From contig CAXHJY010000735.1 of the NCBI GenBank assembly GCA_964016885.1, positions 1 through 50,141 of the forward strand: a stretch of DNA of 50,141 nucleotides. The letters are read 5' to 3'. This document shows positions 2,346 to 49,134 of the stretch, piece after piece (positions within the stretch are counted from its first letter, which is position 1; the number at the start of each line of letters is the position of its first letter). Below the pieces are notes generated by a model, which was not told the DNA's origin, did no database searches, and was given only the letters and a program-made list of their open reading frames with translations. Made by a program: the position numbers and the translations under genes. Origin of the DNA: Eledone cirrhosa (lineage: Eukaryota).

Positions 2346-2502
2346 TATATATATATATATATTATATTTATATGTATATATATATATATATTTATATATA
2401 TATTATATATATATATTATATTTATATGTATATATATATATATTATATATATTATATATATATGTATATATATATATGTATATATATATATGTATTATAT
2501 AT
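205..2502. repeat. (TA)n microsatellite interrupted by TG and TTA variants
   Basis: Seen directly in the sequence. Confidence 0.99.
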
Positions 2503-3749
2503 ACCTGGCTAAGACCAAAGTACTAGTTTGTAGGAAAGAAAACAAGGCGGCGGTCCCTTCTGGGAAATGGTCGTGCTCGGTGTGTAGGAAAGGCGTAGGT
2601 AGAAACTCCATTTTATGTCCTAAATGCAAAGTATGGGTGCATAAAAGATGTAGTGGGATCACAGGTAGGCTAACTAAGAACATAGATTTTACATGTGGCC
2701 GGTGCTCTGGTGCAATAAGTAGCAGCAAGTGCCCACAAACTACTAGCTCTTTCAATTGCGCAGAGGGTTCTATAGAAATAGTGGACAGCTTCCGTTACCT
2801 GGGCGATAAAATCAGCAGTGGGGGAGGGTGCTCTGAAAGTACTGTAGCTAGAGTCAGAACTGGTTGGAAAAAGTTCAGAGAGCTTATACCACTATTAGCT
2901 GCTAAAGGGTTCTCACTAAAAATGAAAGGCAGGTTGTACGATGCCTGCATACGAACAGCAATGCTGCATGGCAGTGAGACCTGGGCATTGTGTGCAGAGG
3001 ATATACGCAGACTAGAGAGGAACGAAGCTTGCATGCTCCGCTGGATGTGTAACAGTAATATACGTGAACGGCAAAGCATAAACGAACCTAAGGAATAAAT
3101 TAGAGATAAGAGGGATCAGATGTTGTTTACTCGAGAGAAGGCTACGTTGGTATGGACACGTGATGCGCATGAAAGTCGATAGCTGTATAACAAAGTGCAG
3201 GGCAATAAAGATAGACGGTAGTCACGGAATAGGCAGACCTAGAAAAACCTGGGACGAGCTGATAAACTCCGACATCACACACTTACACCTCTCCAAGACA
3301 ATGTCACTGGACCGAGACCTTTGGCGGTACTCAGTAACAGAGAAGACCCGCCTTACCTAAATATATAGTAAAACCTACTCCAGCCAGTAGCATCTCTAAC
3401 AAATACACCCCGTCCCACCACCCCCCACCCGATCCACACCACCCCGTTCTATGTAAAGTTATGTTGGTGCCGCGCCATCGAGGCCGAAACAAATGAGATC
3501 GTGTAGGTGTCACGACAAAAAAACACACAGTCCACGCTGTAATGTGGCCGTGTAGGCAACACGGTAAAAACCTCCCAGACCCACACTGTAAATGTGGTTG
3601 GTGTTAGGAAGGGCATCCAACTGTAGAAAACCTGCCAGACAGTCCTATGCGAGCAAGACAATCACTCTTGCCTCAAGTGGGACTACCCCCGTCCAAACCC
3701 ATGCAAGCGTGGAACACGGACGTTAAACGTTGATGATGATGATGATGAT
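2503..3749 (+). mobile_element. 5'-truncated RTE-clade LINE (RT C-terminus with PHD-type insert, 3' UTR, (GAT)n tail)
   Basis: Encodes LAKTKVL...IEIVDSFRYLGDKIS...ARVRTGWKKFREL...RRLRWYGHVMRM...GRPRKTW; frameshift near 3088; (GAT)n tail 3731-3749; near-identical to the copies at 27.2 and 32.7 kb. Confidence 0.95.
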
Positions 3750-6510
<2,761 letters not shown>

Positions 6511-6551
6511 GTAATAATAATAAAATTGAAGACTAAAATCCAAAGAGGACC

Positions 6552-7112
6552 ATGACTAAGTGCGGACCTCGTGCTTGTGACAGGTTCAGAAAAGAACTCA
6601 CAGCCTTCTTTAAAGGCTTGAACCTCTCTATACAGGTTGAGGCCAATCTCTTGTTCGTTAATTACCTCGACGTTACCCTCAATTTACGGCTTTCACACGC
6701 TAGCGCACCCTCTTGATTTAACCCATTTGGTCAGTAGCTTTTGCCACAGCCTATCACGCGCACGCGCATTCTTTCCCTCGTTTAAATTTAAATAATTTTC
6801 TCCCCATAACGGCATTCCTGTCTTAACGACATCACAACTTTGTCCGCTTGGCCTGTTCCCCCCCCCCCCCCCTTTGGAACTTTCCCCCGTTGATGGGTGT
6901 GAGCCCGAAATATTGGGATTAAATCTCTACTACGGCAACCCTTCTACCTTTGTTTTGTTTTCATCTTTGTCTCTCTCAATTTTCACTTTCACCTGTTTTT
7001 CCTATCTATCTTTCACTTTCTACCTCGAGATTTCCCTCTGCATTGTTGTGGCTTTCTTAAATACGTATTTTACACATTTCACAATGCTTCAAGCAAACTT
7101 TAACACCCTCAG
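6552..7112 (+). mobile_element. Penelope-like element remnant (short RT fragment joined to a 3' end with a degenerate hammerhead)
   Basis: 6552-6686 translates [41 protein letters not shown], which resembles the PLE RT segment ending in (F/Y)LDVTLNL; hammerhead-like motif at 6883-6918; embedded in (TA)n. Confidence 0.65.
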
Positions 7113-10849: not shown

Positions 10850-11290
10850 TGCCATTAACGTAGTTCTCGGGGAGATTCATTTGACACGGTGTATGACAAG
10901 GCTGGCCATCTGAATTATATGTACATACCATTTTGTATTATAGCTGCTGAGTATGTCACATACATGTGTACCCATAACTTAATTCTCAGTTAGATTCATG
11001 AGGATACCGAGACAAGGAGGGCTCTCTGAATTACAAACACAGCACATCTTTTATTGTAGTGCAAATAGCTGAGTATTCCACAGACACACCTACCATTAAC
11101 GTGATTCTCAGGTTCGTTCATTTGACAAACTTTTAAACAATATTCTATCTACCCAATTTTACTTACAAGGCTTGCGTAGAAATGAAGTTATGGTAAAAGA
11201 CACCAGCCCAAGATGCCACGCAGTGAGCTCAAAGCCTGCCCTAATCATTGTGAAGTGAATGTTTTAACCATTTTTCCATGTGCTAGTTAT
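10850..11290 (-). mobile_element. Degenerate SINE with about three internal tandem ~120-bp units
   Basis: The unit ccattaacgtagttctc...gattcatttgacac recurs at ~10852, ~10972 and ~11093; a decayed tRNA-like head lies at ~11200-11285. Confidence 0.5.
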
Positions 11291-11525
11291 ACTAAAAAGC
11301 CGCCCTTCAGTCATGACTGACCATGGGTTCGTACTTCAAGGCGCAATTCTGGGCAAAGTGTTTTTGTGGAAGATCACTTGCCTATGGATGCGATTCTTCT
11401 CTCTCCATGCTGCCTTCACACCCGATACATCGTAGTTCAACTAAGAACACAAAGGACTGATATAGCTTGGCATATGTTTCATCGTAGGTGAACTAAGAAC
11501 AAAAAAGACTGATACAGCTTGGCAT

Positions 11526-12053
11526 CTACTGTACGTCTGTATACATATATGTATGTACGTGTCCATACTTATATTTAAGTAACAGCCGTACCAAGAGTGG
11601 GAAATGAAATTTCGTTTCATTTTTTCCGTTTATCGTTTTCGGTGCACCTGGCCGATTAACCCACTCGATATGCAAATTGGGCTACTCAGCCGTTAATATG
11701 CATAAGGTAAGTATATACATTCAACAATCTGGCAGGAAGGTATACGTTGCTGACGATAGCTAATAAGCTTGAAACTAGTACAGCGTTCCTTTGTCAGTGT
11801 TGAACAAACGAGCAACGATGGTTGCTGAACACTACGGCTTAATACGGGATGTTTGTTTACAAACACACCGAGCATTATAATAAATGTTCGGTGAATCCAT
11901 ACGTACATATATATATGTGTGCATGTATGTATATATATATTCATACTACTGTACGTCTGTATACATATATATATGTACGTGTCCATACTTATATTTAAGT
12001 AACAGCCGTACCAAGAGTGGGAAATGAAATTTCGTTTCATTTTTTCCGTTTAT
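11526..12053 (+). mobile_element. Retrozyme-like non-coding repeat, 420-bp monomer, about 1.26 copies
   Basis: 11526-11633 is repeated at 11946-12053 (period 420, one mismatch seen); it contains the hammerhead at 11744-11786 and ends in (TA)n. Confidence 0.8.
11744..11786 (+). ncRNA. Type I hammerhead ribozyme
   Basis: acgttg-CTGACGA-t-agct-aata-agct-t-GAAA-CTAG-TA-cagcgt: stem I acgttg/cagcgt, palindromic stem III ACTAGT, GUA cleavage site. Confidence 0.85.
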
Positions 12054-12176
12054 ATATATATATATATACGTAAAACCAAAACTGAATACTAACCAATACT
12101 ATTACTAATTCTTACTTATTCCTAATTAAACTATTTTTCACTGTGAACAATTTCTCAGCATTTTCTTTTCCATTTA

Positions 12177-13910: not shown

Positions 13911-14024
13911 AGGATCAACAACAGGCAGCAACTAACCCCCATCTTCAATGACTTTGAGATCTATGTATCTCTCTGTCAGCCGAAGGTGGAGAGGGAGTGA
14001 CTGTCATGTTTCAGAAAAACCTGC

Positions 14025-17000
14025 ATCTCGAAGTACAGCAAGTACACTTGGACCGGAGGGTAGACTGGTAGTCCTAGACGTGAACAGTATTGGAGGTGGA
14101 GCCTTTAGACTGGTGGCCGTTTATGCCCCGACCGGGCAATCACAATCGCGGCCAGACTTCTTTAAGCGCATAGAGTCTTTTCTGGGAACGTCTCGCTCCT
14201 TGCTTTTCGTGGGGGACTGGAATGGTATCCTAGATGCACGATGGGACTATGTGGGAGCATGTCCCAGTAGAGCGGGGTGCAACAGCCTCAAAAATCTAAT
14301 CGGCCAATTCCAACTGGCCGATAGATATCGACAAGATTTCTCGACTGCACCACAGTGCACGTGGGCAAACCGAAGCGGGACATCTAGATCGTATCTAGAT
14401 AGGTTTTTCATTAGAGAAAAGGACAAGAAGATGTTAAGCTGTCCACAAATGCACATGGTTGCCTATTCAGATCACAAACTAGTCGTCTGCATAGTCAACC
14501 GTGATAGAATACATAGACAAGGACCCGGATACTGGAAGCTAAACGTATCGTTGCCGGCAGGAAAAGCCTACAATGAACGGATAAGTAGATTAGTTAAGCA
14601 AGAGTTGACGGGAGCCATCGTCAACAATAGATGGTGGTACTCTCTCAAGAAAGCAATTAGAGTAGAATCGATAGGGTTTAGCAGAGAATTAGCTTTAGAG
14701 AAAAAAAATCAGAAACAGAACTAGTAGCCAAGGTAGAAGAGGCGCTTAGGAGTGGCAACGCAGCTAGAGTGCTAGCATCGAGAACGGCACTGGACCAGTT
14801 CTTCGACGTGAAACACGAAGGCTGCGTGCTCTAGGAAACGAGGGAGCAAAAGCTGTTAGCTGGGCCCGAGTGGCGGAAGCGAAAAGTGGCAACAAGTTCA
14901 CGATTCGGTCTTTGAAAGACCAAAACGGACGCCTGCTACTTGATCCCAGGCAGATGTGCGCGGCCTTTCAGCGGCACTTTGCGCGACTGTTTGAGCAGAA
15001 CGACGGTGCACCGAACGGGGCAATGGACTTTGGTTCATACCTCGCCGGTCTGCCACATCTCTCGAGCATGGACGCCGAGTTCTTCGAAAGACCGATCACA
15101 GCCACTGAGATACGGGAAACGCAAATCACCCGGTCTAGATGGTCTACCCTATGAGTTTTACATAGGTATGCCGGACTTGTTCTCTGGCGTCCTCGAAGCC
15201 GTCTACTGCAATTGGCAGCAGAACGGGACAATTCCCAGCTCTGCAGGCAAGGGCATAGTAACGCTGATGAGGAAAGACGAGAAAAAGGGGGACGAAATAA
15301 ACAATTTCAGGCCCATAACTCTGCTCAACACAGAGTTAAAGATTTTGGCCAAGGTGCTAGCAACGAGGCTGGCGCTTGTCATCGAAAACCTGGTAGGGCA
15401 AGAGCAAACGTGTGCAATCCCGACCAGGTCCATACACGACAACCTCCACCTCATGCGATACATCATAGAGAAGGTGGGTAGTAAACCCGGCCTCGGTGGG
15501 GCTCTGATCAATTTAGATCAGTCTAAGGCATTCAATAGGGTCGACCATCGATACTTGGAAGCGGTTCTCAAGGCGGCCGGTTTCGGTCCCGTTTCCAGAG
15601 GCTGGATCAAGGCGATGCACACCAGCATCTGCTCGAAGGTCAAGGTGAACGGCTACCTATTGGAGCCGTTCGCAATCACGCGTTCCATTCGACAGGGATG
15701 CCCTCTCTCCTCCATTCTGTACGTACTGACTCTAGAGTCACTACTGCGGAAGTTGGAGCTTTTGCAGGGCATCCCTTTAGAACCGGGACTGCGAAAAGCG
15801 GCGTTAGCTTATGCCGACGACGTGACGGTAATGGTGTCGAAAACCCCGGAAATCGAGATAATTGGCAACCTACTACAGGAATACGAAAGGTTCACAGGAG
15901 CAAAACTAAACTCGGACAAGCCTGTAGGTTTGCAATTCGGAACGTGGAAAGGCAAACCGATGCCGTCCGACAGCGTCGTCGGACGCTGGACGGAAGGACC
16001 GGTGAAATTGCTCGGGGTCTGGTTCGGTCCAAACCTCCAGGTGGAGAAAAATTGTAACGAGGTCATGGCCAAGGTATTTGCGCTCACCCAGAAGTGGGCA
16101 GAGTGCAAACTGTCTTTGAAAGGTCGAGCAGAGGTGGCGAACACTTTCATAGAGTCTGTCATCTACTACCGCTTCACTGTTGTGCCTTGTCCCCGTGAAT
16201 ACCTCACCAAAATGGAACGCATGCTCTTCCAGTTCCTGTGGAAGAAGCAGGCTCCACTGGTGAGGAGATCCGTCTGCTGTCAACACCCTTCCAACAGAGG
16301 GCTGGGCATGCTGTGGCTAATGATGCGCAAACATGCGAGCTCACCAGTCTGTTTGGGCGGACTTTCCGCTCGGGACCTATGGACAACTTCCAGAGGTCCC
16401 TAGCCTGGCAGTGCTACCGAGGAGCTCTACCCGTTCGAGACAAGATCTACAGGCACGGACGCCCCGGCAGGGATCCTTCCAAGAGGACGTGTCCAAGATG
16501 CGAGCAGGACATTGAAACCGTCTTGCACGCAATTGTACACTGCCCGGGCGTAAGCGACCTGTGGAACTATGCAGAACAACTGCTGTCGCGTATGGGACAA
16601 ATCCAGTTGACTGCCGAGTCCATAGTAAGGATCAAACCGCCAGCCTCTTTCAAAAACGAAAGAGAGGCGGTTTTCCTCTACAGTGGCTATGGTGAAAGAG
16701 GTTATATGGTGGACGAGATTGAGAGGACTGAGGACAGATGCCTTTCTCTCTGGACAACAATTGATTCCCTTCTTTAAGTATCACTTTAGAAGGAGAATCA
16801 GAGTGGAGAGAGAGGCACTGCACCCCAGTAAATTTACTGAAAGGTGGGTGAATGAAGCGAAAATGGCCCGAGTGATTGGGCCTTCCCTGTTTATAAGCCT
16901 GTAGGTTAAAGAAGAGAGCAAAAGGAAGAAGGGTGCACCTGCACAACACGCTCCTGAAGTTGAGGGTTGTTCTATCGACGAGGTATTAAACAACCCATTT

Positions 17001-27043: not shown

Positions 27044-27200
27044 CTCATATATATATATATACATATAACAAAGAAGGTGTGGTAAGATACCAGGTGGACC
27101 ATAAAGCACCAGAGTACTGCTGGCTTAGTTCAGATCTCTACATAGAAAAATAGTTAGGACCCTGATGGCTGAGCTCCGGCTGTTTATATATATATATATA

Positions 27201-29143
27201 GTAACTATAGAGGCATTAAATTAATCGACCAGGTCATGAAGGTCACGGAAAAAGTAATAGCGCAACTAATCAGAGAGAGAATTGATCTAGATGAAATGCA
27301 GTTCGGATTTGTGTCAGGCAAAAGTACCACAGACGCTCTTTTCATTGTACGACAACTACAGGAGAAGTACCTAGCTAAAAGTAAACCTCTATACTTAGCT
27401 TTCGTCGACTTGGAGAAAGCCTTCGACAGAGTCCCCCGTTCCATTATCTGGTGGGCTCTTAGAAAACTAGGTGTTGACGAATGGCTTGTGAGGGCTATAC
27501 AAGCCATGTATAAAGAAACAGTCAGTAAGGTTAGAATTAACAACGAATATAGTGAAGAGTTTAGCGTAAAAGTTGGTGTCCATCAGGGCTCTGTTCTTAG
27601 CCCCCTACTATTTATTATTGCCCTTCAGGCTATAACAGAGGAGTTCAAGACCGGCTGCCCATGGGAACTCCTATACGCAGATGATCTAACGCTCATAGCT
27701 GAATCAATGACCGAACTAGAGAAGAAATTCCAAACATGGAAGCACGGCCTAGAATCAAAAGGCCTTAAAATTAACCTGGCTAAGACTAAAGTTCTAGTTT
27801 GTAGGAAAGAAAATAAGGCGGCAGTCCCATCTGGGAAATGGCCATGCTCAGTGTGTAGGAAAGGCGTAGGTAGAAACTCCATTTTATGTCCCAAATGCAA
27901 AGTATGGGTGCATAAAAGATGTAGTGGGATCACAGGTAAGCTAACTAAGAACATAGATTTTACATGTGGCCGGTGCTCTGGTGCAATAAGTAGCAGCAAG
28001 TGCTCACAAAATACTAGCTCCTTCAACTGCGCAGAGGGTTCTATAGAAATAGTGGACAGCTTCCGTTACCTGGGTGACAAAATCAGCAGTGGGGGAGGGT
28101 GCTCTGAAAGTACAGTAGCTAGAGTCAGAACTGGATGGAAAAAGTTCAGAGAGCTTATACCACTATTAGCCGCTAGAGGGTTCTCCCTAAAAATGAAAGG
28201 CAGGTTATACGATGCCTGCATACGAACAGCAATGCTGCATGGCAGTGAGACCTGGGCATTGTGTGCAAAGGATATACGCAGACTAGAGAGGAACGAAGCT
28301 TGCATGCTCCGCTGGATGTGCAATAGTAATATACGTGAACGGCAAAGCATAAACGAACTAAGGAAAAAATTAGAAATAAGAGGGATCAGATGTTGTTTAC
28401 TCAAGAGAAGGCTACGTTGGTACGGTCACGTGATGCGCATGAAAGACGACAGCTGTATAACAAAGTGCAGGGCAATAAAGATAGACGGTAGCCACGGAGT
28501 AGGCAGACCCAGAAAAACATGGGACGAGCTGATAAATTCCGACCTCACACGCTTACACCTCTCCAAGACAATGTCACTGGACCGAGACCTTTGGCGGTAC
28601 TCAGTAATAGAGAAGACCCGCCTTACCTAAATACAAAGTAAAAACCTACTACAGTCAATAGGAATCTCTATCAAACCCCCCCCCCCCCCCCCCGTCACAC
28701 CACCTCCACCCCATCCACACCGCCCCTTTCAATGTAAAGTTATGTTGGTCCCACAACATCCAGGCCGAAACAAATGAGATCGTGTAGGTGTCACGACAAA
28801 AAACACACAGTCCACGCTGTAAATGTGGCCGTGTAGGCAACACGATAAAAAACTCCCAGCCCCACACTGTAAATGTGGTTGGTGTTAGGAAGGGCATCCA
28901 GCTGTAGAAAACCCGCCAGACAGTCCACGCTGTAATGTGGCTGTGTAGGCAACACGGTAAAAACCTCCCAGCCCCACACTGTAAATGTGGTTGGTGTTAG
29001 GAAGGGCATCCAACTGTAGAAAACCCGCCAGACAGTCCTATGCGAGCAAGACAACCACTCTTGCCTCAAGTGGGAAAACCCCCGTCCAAACCCATGCAAG
29101 CGTGGAACACGGACGCTAAACCTGATGATGATGATGATGATGA
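27201..29143 (+). mobile_element. 5'-truncated RTE LINE with an uninterrupted RT C-terminal ORF
   Basis: Starts immediately after (TA)n; ~119-bp duplication in the 3' UTR; (GAT)n tail followed by (TA)n. Confidence 0.96.
27236..28630 (+). CDS. RTE reverse transcriptase (N-terminally truncated, 464 aa) containing a C4HC3 PHD-like finger
   Basis: QFGF, FVDLEKAFDRVP, GVHQGSVLSPLLF, LLYADD, FRYLG, RRLRWYGHV, GRPRKTW. Confidence 0.9.
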   Translation: MKVTEKVIAQLIRERIDLDEMQFGFVSGKSTTDALFIVRQLQEKYLAKSKPLYLAFVDLEKAFDRVPRSIIWWALRKLGVDEWLVRAIQAMYKETVSKVRINNEYSEEFSVKVGVHQGSVLSPLLFIIALQAITEEFKTGCPWELLYADDLTLIAESMTELEKKFQTWKHGLESKGLKINLAKTKVLVCRKENKAAVPSGKWPCSVCRKGVGRNSILCPKCKVWVHKRCSGITGKLTKNIDFTCGRCSGAISSSKCSQNTSSFNCAEGSIEIVDSFRYLGDKISSGGGCSESTVARVRTGWKKFRELIPLLAARGFSLKMKGRLYDACIRTAMLHGSETWALCAKDIRRLERNEACMLRWMCNSNIRERQSINELRKKLEIRGIRCCLLKRRLRWYGHVMRMKDDSCITKCRAIKIDGSHGVGRPRKTWDELINSDLTRLHLSKTMSLDRDLWRYSVIEKTRLT

Positions 29144-29341
29144 TATATATATATATAGAGAGAGAGAGTTAATTCCATAATAATTAACAAACTATATTTG
29201 AGGATACATGTTTCACCTAAAAGGTTTATTCAATTCATGTATGGTTATAGCAAGTCTTTTGGACTGAGTACTCTACCAATTTTAGATATGTCCTGTGGAT
29301 TTTTCACTCACTATACGTATGTATGTATGTATGTATGTATG

Positions 29342-32730: not shown

Positions 32731-32735
<5 letters not shown>

Positions 32736-34590
32736 CGTGAGGTGTTCAGGATTGCTAGGCAATGCGTCAAGGAAAACCGTGATATTGTCGGGGAGAAGTG
32801 TGTACTTAACGATGATGGCATACTTGCCATCACCGACACTGATAAGAAGGTAGCTTGGAAGTGTCACTATGAAAGGCTACTAAATGAGGAGAATAAATGG
32901 GAGAAAGACAGTCTCCCCCATATCGACCCAATAGAGGGACCAGCAGTGTTAGTCGAGGGGAGTATAATAAGTAAGGCAATCAAGGATATGAAGACAGGTA
33001 AGGCGGCTGGGCCTTCGGAAATAGTTGCTGAGATGCTGAAGGCATCTGGCATGGTGGGACACACCATGGTCACTCGCATAGTTAACCATGTCGTACAGAA
33101 TGGGGTTGTTCCGAAGGACTGGCATAGCAGCATCATCGTTAACTGTTATAAGGGTAAAGGAGACGCCCTAGATAGGAGTAACTATAGAGGCATTAAATTA
33201 ATCGACCAGGTCATGAAGGTCACGGAAAAAGTAATAGCGCAACTAATCAGAGAGAGAATTGACCTAGATGAAATGCAGTTCGGGTTTGTGTCAGGCAAAA
33301 GTACCACAGACGCTCTTTTCATAGTACGACAACTACAGGAGAAGTTCCTAGCTAAAGGTAAACCCCTCTACTTAGCTTTTGTCGACTTGGAGAAAGCCTT
33401 CGACAGAGTCCCCCGCTCCATTATCTGGTGGGCTCTTAGAAAACTAGGCGTTGACGAATGGCTTGTGAGGGCTATACAAGCCATGTATAAAGAAACAGTC
33501 AGCAAGGTTAGAATTAACAACGAATATAGGGAAGAGTTTAGCGTAAAAGTTGGCGTCCATCAGGGCTCTGTTCTCAGCCCCCTACTATTTATTATTGCCC
33601 TTCAGGCTATAACAGAGGAGTTCAAGACAGGCTGCCCATGGGAACTCCTATACGCAGACGACCTGACACTCATAGCGGAATCAATGGCCGAGCTAGAGAA
33701 GAAATTCCAAACATGGAAGCACGGCCTAGAGTCAAAAGGACTTAAAATTAACCTGGCTAAGACCAAAGTTCTAGTTTGTAGGAAAGAAAACAAGGCGGCG
33801 GTCCCTTCTGGGAAATGGTCGTGCTCGGTGTGTAGGAAAGGCGTAGGTAGAAACTCCATTTTATGTCCTAAATGCAAAGTATGGGTGCATAAAAGATGTA
33901 GTGGGATCACAAGTAAGCTAACTAAGAACATAGATTTTACATGTGGCCGGTGTTCTGGTGCAATAAGTAGCAGCAAGTGCCCACAAAATACTAGCTCTTT
34001 CAAAGGCTACGTTGGTATGGACACGTGATGCGCATGAAAGTCGATAGATGTATAACAAAGTGCAGGGCAATAAAGATAGACGGTAGCCACGGAATAGGCA
34101 GACCTAGAAAAACCTGGGACGAGCTGATAAACTCCGACCTCACACACTTACACCTCTCCAAGACAATGTCACTGGACCGAGACCTTTGGCGGTACTCAGT
34201 AACAGAGAAGACCCGCCTTGCCAGTAGGCATCTCTAACAAACTACACCCCGTCCCGCCACCACCCCCACCCCATCCACACCACCCCGTTCCATGTAAAGT
34301 TATGTTGGTGCCGCGCCATCCAGGCCGAAACAAATGAGATCGTGTAGGTGTCACGACAAAAAAACACACAGTCCACGCTGTAATGTGGCCGTGTAGGCAA
34401 CACGGTAAAAACCTCCCAGACCCACACTGTAAATGTGGTTGGTGTTAGGAAGGGCATCCAACTGTAGAAAACCTGCCAGACAGTCCTATGCGAGCAAGAC
34501 AATCACTCTTGCCTCAAGTGGGACTACCCCCGTCCAAACCCATGCAAGCGTGGAACACGGACGTTAAACGTTGATGATGATGATGATGAT
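32731..34590 (+). mobile_element. 5'-truncated RTE LINE with an internal deletion
   Basis: ORF 32742-34028 (KAAGPSEI, NYRGIKL, FVDLEKAFD, LLYADD, PHD-like insert); ~380-bp deletion at ~34004 relative to the 27.2-kb copy; (GAT)n tail. Confidence 0.96.
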
Positions 34591-37100: not shown

Positions 37101-37292
37101 ATTGCTCTTGAGTGCTTTAATGATAAGGGCTTCAATCCTATCTTGCTGTTAGAGCTCATATCTATGCAGGTTTAGTCACATATTGATATATAATTAGACA
37201 AACGGATACACACATATATATATACACACACACGCACACACAGACAAATAAATAGGCAAACAGATAGAGAGAACGATAGATAAATAAACAGG

Positions 37293-37775
37293 AAAAATGA
37301 AATTTCATTTCTCACTCTTAGTACGGCTGATAAGTACGTATACGTACATACATGCACACATATATATATATGTACGTATGGGTTTACCGAACATTTATTA
37401 TAATGCTCGGTTTATTTGTAAACAAACAGCCCGATTATTAGCCGTACAGTATATGCAAATTAGGCTGCTCAGCCGTTAATATGCATAAGGAAAGTATATA
37501 CTTTCAAATGTTTAATCAACTGACAGGAAGGTATACAGTGCTGATGACAGCTAATAAGCTAGAAACTAGTTCATCGTTCCTTTGTCAGTGTTGAACAAAT
37601 AGGGCAGCGATGGTTGCCGAACACTGTACGGCTAATAATTCGGGCTGTTTGTTTACAAACAAACTGAGCATTATAATAAATATTCGGTAAACTCATACGT
37701 ACATATATATATGTGTGCATGTATATACATACTACTGTACGTCTGTAACATATATGTATCTACGTATACATACTT
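37293..37775 (+). mobile_element. Retrozyme-like insertion (420-bp family) with a 5' inverted arm and 17-bp TSD
   Basis: TSD atagataaataaacagg at 37276-37292 and 37776-37792; inverted arm 37293-37450; forward arm 37451-37775 homologous to ~11668-11990. Confidence 0.85.
37535..37577 (+). ncRNA. Type I hammerhead ribozyme
   Basis: acagtg-CTGATGA-c-agct-aata-agct-a-GAAA-CTAG-TT-catcgt; stem I has one mismatch. Confidence 0.75.
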
Positions 37776-37895
37776 ATAGATAAATAAACAGGCATAGATA
37801 AATAGACAGATCGAGCGATCAATAGATAGATGGGGAAGAGGGTCCACGACGAGAGACTAATAGATAAGAGAATAATGAAAACAGAAACCGAGAAA

Positions 37896-38228: not shown

Positions 38229-38619
38229 CATGCTATTAGCTGTCAGAAATGAAAGTTTCGTCAACCTTCTCAATCGTAAACATCGTTTATTTCCGTATTA
38301 CCACGCGTTTAATAAAGCATATCGATGTAAGTGGAGTTACTTAAATGAAAATATAGGTGGCCCTTAAAAGGGCCAAATTAGAAAACAAGTCATGGTTATC
38401 AAATAAATTGGATTTAATCATTATATTTTCATAGTCAAGGTTATCAATTTCATGTATAGGGTTGATGAAAAAAATTTGATAACCATATATTTGTTTTCTA
38501 TTTTGGCCCTTTTAAGGGCCACCTATATTCTCATTTAAGTAACTCCACAATACGGAAATAAACGATGTTTACGATTGAGAAGGTTGACGAAACTTTCACT
38601 TCTGACAGCTAATAGCATG
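38229..38619. repeat. Fold-back element / long inverted repeat (~145-175-bp arms)
   Basis: catgctattagctgtcaga...ggttatcaaat (38229-38404) mirrors atttgataacc...tctgacagctaatagcatg (38474-38619); the left arm carries an extra ~31 bp. Confidence 0.9.
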
Positions 38620-38878: not shown

Positions 38879-38921
<43 letters not shown>

Positions 38922-39210
38922 CAAATAACGAAACGAAATTAAATTTCGTTTCGTTTGTAACTCACTTTTGTATGACTGACGCTTAAACAATTAAGTTAAA
39001 AATGTACATCTACATATGCATACTGAAATACTAGTATGCATATGAATACACACACGTATACATATGTAGATGTACCAAGTCTTTCACTGGTTACTTTACT
39101 GTCAGTAATCCAGCTATTCTGTATGTAAACACACAGACAAACCGGTTTTTAGAGTCATACTGGTTTTCGAGGAAACACCTTTCCTCTATTCTCCAGAAAG
39201 CCAGACAAGG

Positions 39211-39255
39211 AATATTGAACTAGTTTCGTTGTTGTTACAACTCATCAGCAATATT
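39211..39255 (-). ncRNA. Type I hammerhead ribozyme (inverted copy)
   Basis: Exact reverse complement of 39913-39957. Confidence 0.88.
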
Positions 39256-39445
39256 TACCTATCTACCGGCCTTTCTGGAGAATCGTAAAAGCACATATCG
39301 TTATATGCTTTTTCTATGAAAATTAGTAGTGGGCAGACTAATTTGCATAGAGTGTGAGTACGTACCGGTTCAACGGAGACGATAAAAACAAATAACGAAA
39401 CGAAATGTGCTTTTACGATTCTCCAGAAAGGCCGGTAGATAGGTA

Positions 39446-39490
39446 AATATTTCTGATGAGTTGTAACAACAACGAAACTAGTTCAATATT
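39446..39490 (+). ncRNA. Type I hammerhead ribozyme (G>T at the first stem I pair)
   Basis: aatattt-CTGATGA-gttg-taacaa-caac-GAAA-CTAG-TT-caatatt. Confidence 0.8.
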
Positions 39491-39912
39491 CCTTGTCTGG
39501 CTTTCTGGAGAATAGAGGAAAGGTGTTTCCTCAAAAACCAGTATGACTCTAAAAACCGGTTTGTCTGTGTGTTTACATACAGAATAGGTGGATTACTCAC
39601 AGTAAAGTAACCAGTGAAAGACTTGGTACATCTACATATGTATACGTGTGTGTATTCATATGCATACTAGTATTTCAGTATGCATATGTAGATGTACATT
39701 TTTAACTTAATTGTTTAAGCGTCAGTCATACAAAAGTGAGTTACAAACGAAACGAAATTTAATTTCGTTTCGTTATTTGTTTTTATCGTCTCCGTTGAAC
39801 CGGTACGTACTCACACTCTATGCAAATTAGTCTGCCCACTACTAATTTTCATAGAAAAAGCATATAACGATATGTGCTTTTACGATTCTCCAGAAAGGCC
39901 GGTAGATAGGTA

Positions 39913-39957
39913 AATATTGCTGATGAGTTGTAACAACAACGAAACTAGTTCAATATT
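39913..39957 (+). ncRNA. Type I hammerhead ribozyme
   Basis: aatattg-CTGATGA-gttg-taacaa-caac-GAAA-CTAG-TT-caatatt: 7-bp perfect stem I, G-C-closed stem II, palindromic stem III, GUU cleavage site. Confidence 0.9.
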
Positions 39958-40740
39958 CCTTGTCTGGCTTTCTGGAGAATAGAGGAAAGGTGTTTCCTCG
40001 AAAACCAGTATGATTCTAAAAACCGGTTTGTCTGTGTGTTTACATACAGAATAGGTGGATTACTGACAGTAAAGTAACCAGTGAAAGACTTGGTACATCT
40101 ACATATGTATACGTGTGTGTATTCATATGCATACTAGTATTTCAGTATGCATATGTAGATGTACATTTTTAACTTAATTGTTTATATATATATATATATA
40201 TATATATACAGCTACTGAGAGAGAGAGAGAAAAGGACATCATGTATTAGAAGCTAGATAGAGAATGACAGGATATGTGTGACAAAAGAAGTAGAGACCTA
40301 GTGAAATAGAGTGAATGAGTAAGTGTGTGTGACAGAGAAAATGAGAAAAAGAGAGAGAGAGAGAGTGTGTGTAAGACTAAACACGAGACGGATAAAGTCT
40401 AAGAGATGAACTTGTTCAGTACAAACTCAAACAAGCTGTATGTGTACTCCTATAATAAAATTCTACTTCACACGCTTTCTCTCTCTCTTCCACAAACACA
40501 CATATATACTACACACACACACGTATATATATTTATACTAATTTACACACACACACATACATATATATACAAACACAATGCGTATATATACGTACACATC
40601 CCACAGACAGGCTGACGTAGATATTTGAAAATAGGAATGTAAACATAGATGTCTATATATATATATTTATATATAAACATATAGGTAATGGTATACATAC
40701 ATCATGTTTAAGTATATAACTAAAAAAAAAACAAAAAAAC

Positions 40741-41965: not shown

Positions 41966-42686
41966 TATAGCTCTGATTCATCTGAATTATTGAGCCCTCT
42001 GCCGCTCATTTCGAATTTTGTTTATCGTGAACTCGTGCGCCGATTTTTCGATACTCGATCTTTCTAATATTTTTAGCTCTGGACATAGCTATCCACCAGT
42101 TAATTTTACTGCTCAATTTTTGTCGATTTTATTGAGTGATGAATAGCTTTTGTTTTATTTTAACATGTCTATTGAGCACTCTTATTCGATATGTGTATTT
42201 CCACATTCCCTCGAATAGTTTTCGCGGATGTAGAGGTTATCTCCCTTGTCTAATGCCATGTGCGTTTTTCACTGGTTGTTAGCCCCTTATCCGCTAGGAA
42301 AAAAGCTCGTTGAGAAAGTAAACTCCGTTCCTCTTGCTCTAGTAGGCTTTTATATTTATATGTGAGCTGATAGAGTACAGTCTAAGGATTTACAGAAACC
42401 CAAGAAGCTAGATTTAACACCTTTCTAGTGGGTCCGGGTATGATTTTACATTCATTTAAATTATTGATGTATTGTTTTATTGATATTTTTTATCTGTTTG
42501 TCCCGAATCTTCTATTATCGATTTTTTATCGTATGGTTGATTGTAGACTTGTTCTATATGTGACGGTATTTTAACAATAGTTATAGCTCTGATTCATCTG
42601 AATTATTGAGCCCTCTGCCGCTCATTTCGAATTTTGTTTATCGTGAACTCGTGCGCCGATTTTTCGATACTCGATCTTTCTAATAT
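41966..42686. mobile_element. Non-coding element with a 616-bp period and ~105-bp terminal direct repeat, inside (TA)n
   Basis: 41966-42070 is identical to 42582-42686. Confidence 0.8.
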
Positions 42687-44022
<1,336 letters not shown>

Positions 44023-44036
44023 CCCCCCCCCCCCCC

Positions 44037-45603
44037 CTCACCGCTTCCCACCTCATCGTCCGCACCCCCCGCACCCCCACCATCTACTTCCTCCCCAAAC
44101 TCCACAAACCCGACAACCCCGGCCGCCCCATCGTCTCCGCTTGCAACTGCCCCACCGAACTCATCTCCGCCTTTCTCGACCCCCTTGTCACCACCCTCCC
44201 CTCCCACATCTCCGACACCAACCACGCCCTGCGCCTTTTCGACTCCTTCACCTACCTACCCGGCCCACAGCCCTTCCTCTTCACCCTAGACATCAAGTCC
44301 CTCTATACAGTCATCCCCCACGCCGACGGCCTTCGCGCCCTCAAACACTACCTCGACCTTCGCCCCTCCCCCATTCCCTCCACCACCACCCTCCTTCGCC
44401 TCGCCGAGCTGGTCCTCACCCTAAATTGTTTCTCCTTCTCGGGTGAGTTTTACCAACAGGTCACGGGGGTAGCCATGGGCACAAGAATGGGCCCGAACTA
44501 TGCCAACCTTTTTGTTGGCCATGTTGAGGCCCAAATCATTGCCCAGTACACCGGCCCCACGCCCGAACTGTACGGTCGTTACATTGACGACTGTATCGGA
44601 GCCACGACCCTCACCCGAGAACAGCTCGACTCCTTTCTCTCCTTCTTCTGCTCCTTCCACCCCTCCCTCCACTTCACCACCTCTATCTCCACCACCCACG
44701 TCCACTTCTTAGACATCTCCGTCGCCTTCGACCCCTCCCACCACTCCCTCGTCACCTCCGCCTTCTTCAAACCCACCGACTCCCACGCTTACCTCGACTT
44801 CACCTCTTCCCACCCCACCCACACTAAACACTCCATTCCCTACTCCCAACTTCTCAGGATCCGCCGCCTCTGTAGCCGTGATGCTGACTTCGAGTCCCAG
44901 GCCCTTTCCCTACTCAGCCATTTCATCCGCAGAAGTTACCCCCTCTCTCTCGTTTACACCGCTCTCACCCACGCCCGTGCTGTCCCCCGCTCCACCACCG
45001 CACACCCACCCACCATCTCCCCTTCCCCATCACCTACCACCCCTCCACCGCCTCCAGTCCGACCCCTCCACCTCCCACATCTTCCCAACCCCACCACTCC
45101 CCTCCTTCAAAACGCGCATGCAATCTCTGCACCCTCCTCGTCCATAGCTCTCTACCCCCCAACCCACGCTCTGTTCCCCCCCCCCCGGTTCCTTTCCCTG
45201 TCCTAGGCCCCGCTGCAACACCTGTCCCCACATCACCAACACCACCACCTTCCAGGGTCCCAACGGCCACTCTCTTTCGGTCCGGCATGCCTTCCGCTGC
45301 ACCTCCTCCAACCTAGTCTACGGACTTCGCTGCACGGAGTGCATCGCGACTTATGTCGGATAGACGGGACGTCGCCTGGCGGACCGAGTCACGGAGCACC
45401 TCCGGGATATTCGTCTCGGGGGCAGTTCCCCCATCGCCCGCCACTTTGGTGGCCCTGGACACTCCGCACGCCATCTCACAGTCTGTGGCCTACTCCAGTG
45501 CCACGGAACACCCGCCCATCGCCTTACGGTCGAACAACGAACTATCTTCATCTTACAGACCCACACTCCCCCCGGCCTGAACTCCCCACCCTTATTCCTT
45601 TAG
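44037..45603 (+). pseudogene. Penelope-like RT and GIY-YIG endonuclease (disrupted)
   Basis: YFLPKLHKPDNPGRPIVS, LDIKSLYT, GVAMGTRMGPNYANLF, RYIDD, FLDI, KPTDSHAYL, SIPYSQLLRIRRLCS; after a frameshift CPRPRCNTC, NLVYGLRC..C..YVG*TGR (in-frame TAG at 45361), EH, PPGLN; stop at 45601-45603. Confidence 0.93.
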
Positions 45604-46983
45604 CGTTCGACCGCCCCCTCCCCCCACACTTATCCCCCACTAACACCACTAACACACCCCTCCTTTTCACCGCCCACCCCACACTAACAATACTAACACC
45701 TCCACTCCACCCCTCATCTGACCACCCTTCCCCAACTAACATACTAACATCCCTTCCCTCCCCTCTTCTCCCCCTCCTTATCACACGCACACACTTACAC
45801 CACCCACCCCACACGCAACTAACATCACTAACACCCCCAACCCCACGCACACGTACCCACGCACACCAACTCTACACACCCTACCACCACTAACCCCCAC
45901 TCACACCTGCATTCAACCCCTCCCCACCTCCCGTATACTAACACCCATTCACCAAACTACACACACACCAGTACACCACACTCCCTCCATAGAACCACAC
46001 ACACCCTTCTCTCCCCGCTCCACACTCACTCATCCCACTAACACCCCTACTAATACACACACACACACACACACCCTCCTCACTTCAACTTTCACACCTA
46101 CCCATCCTCGCCCCCTTACCATTCCACCGACTGCTGCTATGCCCTTCTGACCACCTCCCAGCACCAACAGACCACAGCACTCCCACTGCTGACCACTTCC
46201 TGTTGCGCGCGCACCCCACATCTCTCCTCTTCCGACCACCGCTTCATGGATTACCCACACGCAGAAATTGACTTATAACCAATCCTCCAAACATCCTTGG
46301 AACTTACCAACTTTTCAACCATCCTCTTACGTCATCACCTATATAACTCACCCACACACACACACACACCAAAAAAATTGACCAACAACCAATCCACTAA
46401 ACATCTTCGGAATTTACCAACTTTTCAACCATCCTCTTACGTAATCACCTATATAACTCACCCACACACACACCCCAAAAAAATTTTTTTTCTCCACACG
46501 CCACCCACACCACGCTTAAACCCCACACACACGTGCTTCCCACCACATATTTACACCCTCAGCCTCCTGATTCTTCTCCCCCCCACCCCCTATCCACACA
46601 CGCACAGACACTCCGACCTACAAAAACACCCCCCACACACACCTCTTCCTGAACATGCAACCCCGTTCTTCCCCCAACCCTTACTTTCACATACACACAC
46701 ACACGCACACACCACCTTCAGCCCTCCCCGCTCGGACACCCCCGTCTCCCTCTCCCCACTCCACCCGCCACCACCCCTACTCACCGCACACCCTTCCACC
46801 ACCTGTTTACCCCCCTTTTAATTTCAGTTTATTTTGATCATGCCTTTATTTTTAAATTTTCTCATTCCTTGTATTTTGATCATGCTTTATTTTTATTTTT
46901 TAACTTTATTTATTAATTTTTCATTCGCACCGTTTCCTTTCACTATATGTCTCTCCACCACTCCCCTACACACCTTTTGAACT

Positions 46984-47011
46984 CTGAGGAAGGGCTTATG
47001 CCCGAAACGTC
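46984..47011 (+). ncRNA. Minimal Penelope-type hammerhead motif
   Basis: CTGAGGA-A-GGGC-TTAT-GCCC-GAAA-CG-TC; stem I pairing is poor in this copy. Confidence 0.75.
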
Positions 47012-47100
47012 GTCCCCCACCTACCCCCACTCTCCTGAGCGTGAAATTAATAAACATTTATTGTACTGCCCCTGTTTTGTCCCTGTTCAAATTTTTCCAT

Positions 47101-49134
<2,034 letters not shown>

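Follow-up and report, generated by a model that had tools for sequence, protein, structure and literature searches.

A protein-free hammerhead repeat whose insertions appear to fit Penelope-like integration

How does a 420-bp unit with a single ribozyme come to be inserted as 1.26 copies of itself, with the redundant part at its two ends and the ribozyme outside it? The question is raised by an insertion (insertion A, 11526-12053) in a window of 50,141 nucleotides, the whole stretch of DNA that we analysed, which is animal DNA with frequent AT microsatellites and retroelements. Insertion A starts and ends with a 108-nt direct repeat (11526-11633 and 11946-12053, period 420) whose two copies agree at 107 of 108 positions, the sole mismatch being G at 11551 against A at 11971. 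The initial annotation had seen a 420-bp unit present as a 1.26-mer with 108-bp terminal redundancy and a ribozyme outside the repeat, and this layout is real: insertion A is a 1.26-mer of a non-coding 420-bp unit with a single type I hammerhead. Its parts are:

11526-11633, plus strand: partial copy with a 5' truncation, holding the unit's final 108 nt and serving as pseudo-LTR of insertion A.
11634-12053, plus strand: full 420-bp unit in its natural register, from unit junction to fixed 3' end, a register common to insertions B and C.
11669-11704, plus strand: conserved hairpin with the octamer ATGCAAAT (11670-11677), a putative promoter element or structural motif.
11745-11785, plus strand: type I hammerhead, predicted to cut at GUA, after 11780; its helix III is a 2-bp palindrome, and its stem I extends to about 11736/11790.
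11866-11893, plus strand: hairpin quoted in the initial annotation.
11899-11982, plus strand: long palindromic TA-rich hairpin, whose loop contains, in unit terms, the 5' breakpoint of insertion A (11945/11946).
11986-12001, plus strand: small hairpin in which the other preferred 3' end, site 2, falls (about 11993-11997).
12019-12053, plus strand: terminal hairpin and T-rich tract ending in TTTAT, with the main fixed 3' end (site 1, 12053).
12054-12068, no strand: (AT)n target; since the left flank has AT at its end as well, no target duplication of A can be resolved.

A combination of BLAST and profile searches found two relatives of A in the window:

37276-37792, minus strand: insertion B, of the same family as A; its plus arm is identical to A at 285 of 315 positions.
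38915-40184, minus strand: insertion C, of a sister family with a 467-bp unit; identical to A at 287 of 409 positions.

The left flank of A (10852-11127 and 11428-11525) contains decayed repeats, namely three copies of a sequence about 120 bp long and two of a 52-bp one.

That the unit has no coding potential, as had been claimed, holds for the sense strand, where the longest ATG ORF is 49 aa. It does not hold to the letter for the antisense strand, where an ORF of 115 aa crosses the TA-rich tract; because no antisense ORF above 40 aa is present in sister family C, we treat this ORF as a product of chance that is not conserved. The unit carries no ORF for a reverse transcriptase (RT) or GIY-YIG endonuclease, unlike an autonomous Penelope-like element (PLE). 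A tRNA gene search found none, and a tRNA-derived SINE was rejected on that ground. We also dropped the idea that the ribozyme lies in an intron with GTAAGT at 11707 as its donor, because the donor letter is missing from B and from most of the depth in the public sequencing run X1.

The hammerhead consists of CUGACGA (11750-11756), a 4-bp stem II (11758-11769), GAAA (11771-11774) and stem I (11745-11749 with 11781-11785). A search of the window with Rfam models at the gathering threshold detected no hammerhead. A generic hammerhead descriptor gave four matches, of which the one at 111 is poor, and did not pick up the copies at 37541 and 39453; a pattern derived from the element gave five matches in the window and none in 100 shuffles, a significance that is inflated because the pattern was drawn from the element itself. 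Pattern scans gave no match in metagenome contigs and none in viral contigs, and the one match to a looser pattern, in a bacterial-looking contig with neither BLAST nor profile similarity to the window, was set aside as chance. Across A, B and C we find two-sided changes in 3 of 6 stem I pairs and 3 of 4 stem II pairs, a covariation that rests on three sequences and on a structure derived from those same sequences (helices 1, 3 and 4 were used). The helix of the octamer hairpin is 95% paired across the three insertions, with no two-sided changes; all four occurrences of ATGCAAAT in the 50-kb window belong to these elements, where the octamer precedes the ribozyme by 80-100 nt.

The many hairpins noted in the initial annotation are borne out, both by the quoted example, which we located at 11866-11893, and by the folding of the whole unit, which is far better than that of shuffled sequences. 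The linear unit has a predicted fold of -141.2 kcal/mol (z -6.9, with 0 of 100 shuffles as good) and the circular unit one of -134.8 kcal/mol (z -8.1, 40 shuffles), against z values from +0.8 to -3.5 for nine control stretches; the palindromic TA-rich hairpin contributes part of this excess. Imposing the catalytic fold on the circle, with stems I and II paired and the core left open, is predicted to cost only 1.4 kcal/mol. Metazoan hammerheads usually have a helix III that is short and palindromic, a form that probably needs a second copy for good cleavage (PMC4209133). Within the family, about half of the X1 depth has T at 11783 and 12% has the matching G at 11747; the T thus mostly leaves a mismatch in stem I, which would count against hammerhead activity. 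Li 2026 (10.64898/2026.07.22.740005) reports that 8 of 9 frog retrozyme dimers were uncleaved in vitro.

These properties agree with the earlier assignment of the unit to the type of the metazoan non-LTR retrozymes, presented in PMC7229834 as a class of non-coding units of 150-450 bp with GC under 50%; here we find a non-coding unit of 420 bp with a GC content of 0.374 (37%) and a type I hammerhead. Our unit shares with the class, as that source describes it, one type I hammerhead per unit, high self-pairing with a ribozyme free to fold, the lack of an LTR, a target duplication of more than 4 bp (17 bp in B), the presence of PLEs in the same genome, and abundance and mobility, seen here as three insertions in 50 kb. 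Mussel retrozymes have units of 350-390 bp. There are also differences. Metazoan retrozymes are described as long arrays, whereas we see dispersed 1.x-mers and inverted pairs, and by the definition of 'active' in Li 2026, A, with one ribozyme, would not count as active, whereas C, with two in tandem, would. Fixed 3' ends and inverted arms, to which we turn below, are described for retrozymes neither in the available text of PMC7229834 nor in that of Li 2026.

The unit is not of the plant LTR retrozyme kind. Plant LTR retrozymes have fixed LTRs, each with a type III hammerhead, and a 4-bp target duplication, whereas here the length of the repeat varies, the ribozyme is of type I and lies outside the repeat, and the duplication is 17 bp long. 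A further system to compare is newt satellite 2, a tandem non-coding unit with a dimer-type hammerhead that forms long arrays in amphibians and has a snRNA-type promoter with an octamer. Our literature search found no text supporting a parallel between that octamer promoter and the octamer here.

The insertions B and C show how the unit ends. In B, the minus arm stops at site 1 and an inverted plus arm (37450-37778), which contains the hammerhead at 37541, stops near site 2; the insertion is flanked by a 17-bp target duplication (37276-37292 and 37776-37792), and the duplication and the element end overlap by up to 9 nt. In C, whose family is about 70% identical to that of A and B, a minus arm of 1.05 units runs to site 1 and an inverted plus arm of about 1.67 units runs to site 2, with microhomology at the join of the arms and (TA)n flanks on both sides. 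Inverted arms are thus present in 2 of the 3 window insertions. The hammerheads of C lie at 39248 (minus strand), 39453 and 39920, two of them in tandem, and the one at 39453 has lost the closing G of stem I by a private change. Adjoining the (TA)n of C, which extends through 38880, is an inverted repeat (38229-38619) whose arms contain a match to the Histone3 stem-loop (38335-38379, minus strand, score 34 at a threshold of 34); this match is probably a repeat hairpin, and we noticed no histone ORF.

Site 1 is the 3' end in 3 of 3 window insertions, across both families, and in each follows the terminal hairpin and TTTAT. It lies 273 nt downstream of the ribozyme cut in A and 303 nt in C, and from it both A and C continue into (AT)n. 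Site 2 lies inside the small hairpin, 56 nt (in A terms) to 69 nt (in C) upstream of site 1, and was seen in three cases: C and one contig of the public run X4 (which departs at 11577) share the aligned base, and the end in B lies 4 nt away. The 5' ends behave otherwise: the five that we could place, in A and in the arms of B and C, fall at five different unit positions, and the part in excess of one unit measures 108, 25 and about 313 nt in different arms. From the shared site 1 together with the varying 5' ends and arm lengths it therefore follows that the 108-bp repeat is no LTR and that the permutation is not random. The LTR-like alternative that had been raised, in which all copies would share fixed 108-bp ends, was looked for and is contradicted by the variable redundancy. 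The companion idea that copies start at random permutations finds no support either, as copies have one end fixed, at either of two preferred sites, and vary only at the 5' end.

The public sequencing runs extend this pattern beyond the window. Some words of the unit are contained in 20 of the 24 runs listed, and half or more of them in three, all from one sample; no RNA run is listed among those with the unit. Four of the 24 were aligned to 11470-11945 at 85% likeness, with 11892-11945 passed over. In X1, 10,761 contigs match the unit, with a summed depth of 0.76-2.1 million against 5 on the flank, and although neither contig count nor depth equals copy number, the unit family is plainly very abundant and dispersed in this run. 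The left flank of A, for its part, is low copy in X1, with one contig on 11470-11517. At least 55 X1 contigs and at least 4 X4 contigs have loose ends at 11633, the equivalent of site 1, from which they run into (AT)n, and this is the only transition from element to non-element among the X1 loose ends listed. The type of run X4 is unrecorded, and we do not take its matches as expression.

Several other apparent ends were discarded. Loose ends at 11526 are an artefact of where the reference was cut, and those at 11720, 11808 and 11833 were rejected as termini because element sequence continues past them, as expected of subfamily indels. In X24, the end clusters at 11608/11611 and 11675/11678 are restriction ends at AATT sites of a RAD library; the scattered opposite-strand joints in the same run are consistent with inverted arms and possibly include library chimeras. 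Run X5, labelled as another organism, contains pieces that reach about 99% identity with the unit, have a depth of 30-360 and show the majority variants of X1. They may reflect cross-contamination, diet, a low-copy relative or transfer, which are mutually indistinguishable.

These ends bear directly on a model of random permutation, in which priming may occur at any point of a 420-nt circle that is then copied all the way round, leaving both ends of a genomic copy arbitrary. Such a model would account for the varying 5' ends, for a copy of A that crosses the cut site and exceeds one unit, and for the three units of C, which carry only private changes (3, 1 and 1, with one at the inversion junction set aside). 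We nevertheless regard it as very improbable, since it does not explain a common 3' end in all three window insertions, the chance of which is about 1.4e-4 if ends are uniform within 2 nt, nor the 55 or more X1 contigs that end at site 1.

Could the repeat instead have arisen in place, by local tandem duplication or unequal crossover after insertion of a monomer, as in the minisatellite birth considered in Li 2026? Near-identical repeats with common rare letters would also be expected in that case, and both 108-bp repeats of A indeed have C at 11563 and 11592, letters found in about 0.4% of the X1 depth. Because they share these rare letters, the two repeats come from one template lineage, which is compatible with a circle and also with repeated use of one master copy. 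Local duplication, however, gives no reason for the duplicated part to stop exactly at the conserved 3' end, where it adjoins the (AT)n target, for the same junction to recur in C and in many contigs, or for C to combine two separate arms, each above one unit, in one insertion, and we consider it extremely unlikely. Across the runs, the X1 depth drops by about half just past 11633, and the unit junction is bridged in 5 of the 8 X1 records shown and in 3 of the 8 X5 records shown. Bridging and depth drop in X1 are as expected if 1.x-mers are common, with the qualification that conservation also shapes depth.

A different kind of element altogether would be a rolling-circle DNA element with the hammerhead as a passenger. 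Helentron/HINE-like elements have a 3' hairpin, a T-rich end, an internal microsatellite and tandem copies, and the unit has a terminal hairpin, a T-rich end and an internal TA-rich tract. The 17-bp target duplication of B, the variable 5' ends and the strand inversion all speak against this explanation, as do the compensatory changes that keep the hammerhead stems between families, and it seems to us a highly doubtful one.

The combination of a fixed 3' end, a variable 5' end and an inverted arm is, however, familiar from PLEs. In Craig 2021 (PMC8557442), PLE insertions are partial tandems that can have a 5'-truncated copy in inverted orientation beside them, carry a tail of 30-40 bp and favour (TA)n. 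Frangieh 2024 (PMC11167929) reports that a purified PLE protein nicks AT-rich DNA and primes on both strands, that reverse transcription starts at two internal RNA sites matching the genomic tail, and that hammerhead cleavage is dispensable; homology between the RT start and the cut DNA was not found there. Compared with endonuclease-bearing (EN+) PLEs and their pseudo-LTRs (PMC8557442, PMC11167929, PMC4209133), our insertions share the partial tandem, the adjacent inverted 5'-truncated copy, the one-ended tail, the AT-rich or (TA)n targets, a hammerhead upstream of the RT start and its palindromic helix III. They differ from what these sources describe in having a unit without an ORF, a hammerhead of canonical size rather than the minimal PLE form, a tail of 56-69 bp rather than 30-40 bp, and a distance from ribozyme to RT start of 273-303 nt rather than the about 85-90 nt to the first start in the anole PLE; moreover, the 3' end of B suggests primer-template pairing, unlike the PLE of Frangieh 2024. 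Judged on anatomy, A, B and C would fit PLE integration point by point, without the protein. A precedent may be MRC1 of Chlamydomonas, a non-autonomous Chlamys PLE that is also protein-free, with pseudo-LTRs and head-to-tail insertions (Craig 2021); Chlamys PLEs such as MRC1 were once mistaken for LTR elements (PMC8557442). As described there, these non-autonomous Chlamys PLEs are green-algal, mostly lack a canonical hammerhead and have a 3' end resembling that of their partner, a resemblance that we do not find among the PLE pieces of this window.

Since every insertion mark is a PLE mark and PLEs are heavily 5'-truncated (Craig 2021, PMC8557442), one may ask whether the copies are simply 5'-truncated pseudo-LTR remnants of an autonomous PLE, with no self-standing non-autonomous family. 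If so, an ORF should precede the unit start, whereas in A and twice in C it is the unit's own end that does so, as it also does in the bridging records (5/8 shown in X1, 3/8 in X5), and the summed X1 depth beyond the junction is still about half of that before it. There is, in addition, no sense ORF above 49 aa, and the hammerhead stems are of canonical, retrozyme-like size, against the minimal form found at 46984 in the window. We therefore think this explanation unlikely.

Other elements of the window deserve description. A 5'-truncated, broken element with a Penelope-type RT and GIY-YIG endonuclease (44013-47101), very C-rich and with (TA)n on both sides, contains the minimal hammerhead core at 46984 and, from its CxxC linker, may be Neptune-like. 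A second PLE-like RT fragment lies in (TA)n at 6530-7100, where a decayed hammerhead-like stretch near 6890, spotted by eye, folds unconvincingly. At 41966-42686 a partial tandem of a 616-bp unit with identical 105-bp terminal repeats (circular z -3.3) sits in (TA)n; our scan found no hammerhead core in it, and it is possibly a ribozyme-free passenger of PLE type. Two short related elements (42960-43063 and 27066-27180) have (TA)n flanks and a common 39-nt start (85% identity). The remaining retroelements include a broken endonuclease-RT LINE (13936-16904) and near-identical copies of an RT-PHD LINE with (GAT)n ends (2495-3750, 27173-29150 and 32733-34590). Two protein searches matched other marine animals only, at 50-58% identity, and the host is probably a marine invertebrate, perhaps an octopus.

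Our analysis suggests, then, that A is probably a non-autonomous animal non-LTR retrozyme mobilised in trans by a PLE RT and GIY-YIG endonuclease. A broken element of that kind, with its own minimal hammerhead, sits in (TA)n in the same window as A; neither of the window's two PLE-like pieces has a 3' end that resembles the unit. Metazoan non-LTR retrozymes have been proposed to be non-autonomous PLE derivatives (Li 2026, 10.64898/2026.07.22.740005). How might the mobilisation proceed? A tandem copy would be transcribed, and the octamer may be part of an internal promoter for this step. The hammerhead, needing a partner to stabilise helix III, would cut multimers to unit length, and a host ligase may circularise the products. 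The PLE protein would bind near the terminal hairpins and nick AT-rich DNA, and reverse transcription would begin inside the RNA at site 1, aided by a few bases of primer pairing. The RT would then read through the still uncut ribozyme, cover more than a full unit and halt at a variable point, leaving a 1.26-mer in the case of A, while the second target strand could also prime, at site 2, giving the inverted arm of B and C.

What was the template? The cDNA of A begins at 12053, and after crossing the cut site (11780) it extends a further 254 nt into a second round. A linear monomer cut by the ribozyme is exhausted after 273 nt, which leaves three possible templates: a circle, a multimer that had escaped cleavage, and a monomer on which the RT jumped from end to end. 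The proposal that the copy was reverse-transcribed from a circle or multimer is thus upheld by a cDNA that crosses the cut site and exceeds one unit. The initial annotation missed the link to PLEs, and with it that the PLE mode of integration explains a 1.26-mer without a circle; between a circle and an uncleaved linear multimer we see the chances as about even. More tentatively, we propose as a possibility that a Penelope-like RT directly uses the unit as a circular RNA; the circle, having no 3' end, would be primed by one or both strands of the cut target at two fixed places, both in hairpins, and copied for more than one round, with the octamer as an internal snRNA-type promoter. If this direct use of a circle were true, a single mechanism would produce partial tandems, tails and inverted arms, and the role of the hammerhead would be to return multimers to circular form.

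The unit belongs to a class that is already known, and here a protein-free retrozyme itself bears the insertion marks of PLEs. PLEs were named as candidate movers of animal retrozymes by Cervera and de la Pena 2020 (PMC7229834), and Li 2026 argues for a PLE role from co-occurrence and trees, calling the mechanism open. Our literature search turned up no paper that describes this family or reports fixed ends for retrozymes, and repeat libraries of the Repbase type and the supplements of papers may contain the family. The exact RT start sites predicted here on a 420-nt template make the copying of a circle by a PLE RT directly testable, and the question of the circle also bears on how the pseudo-LTRs of PLEs are formed.
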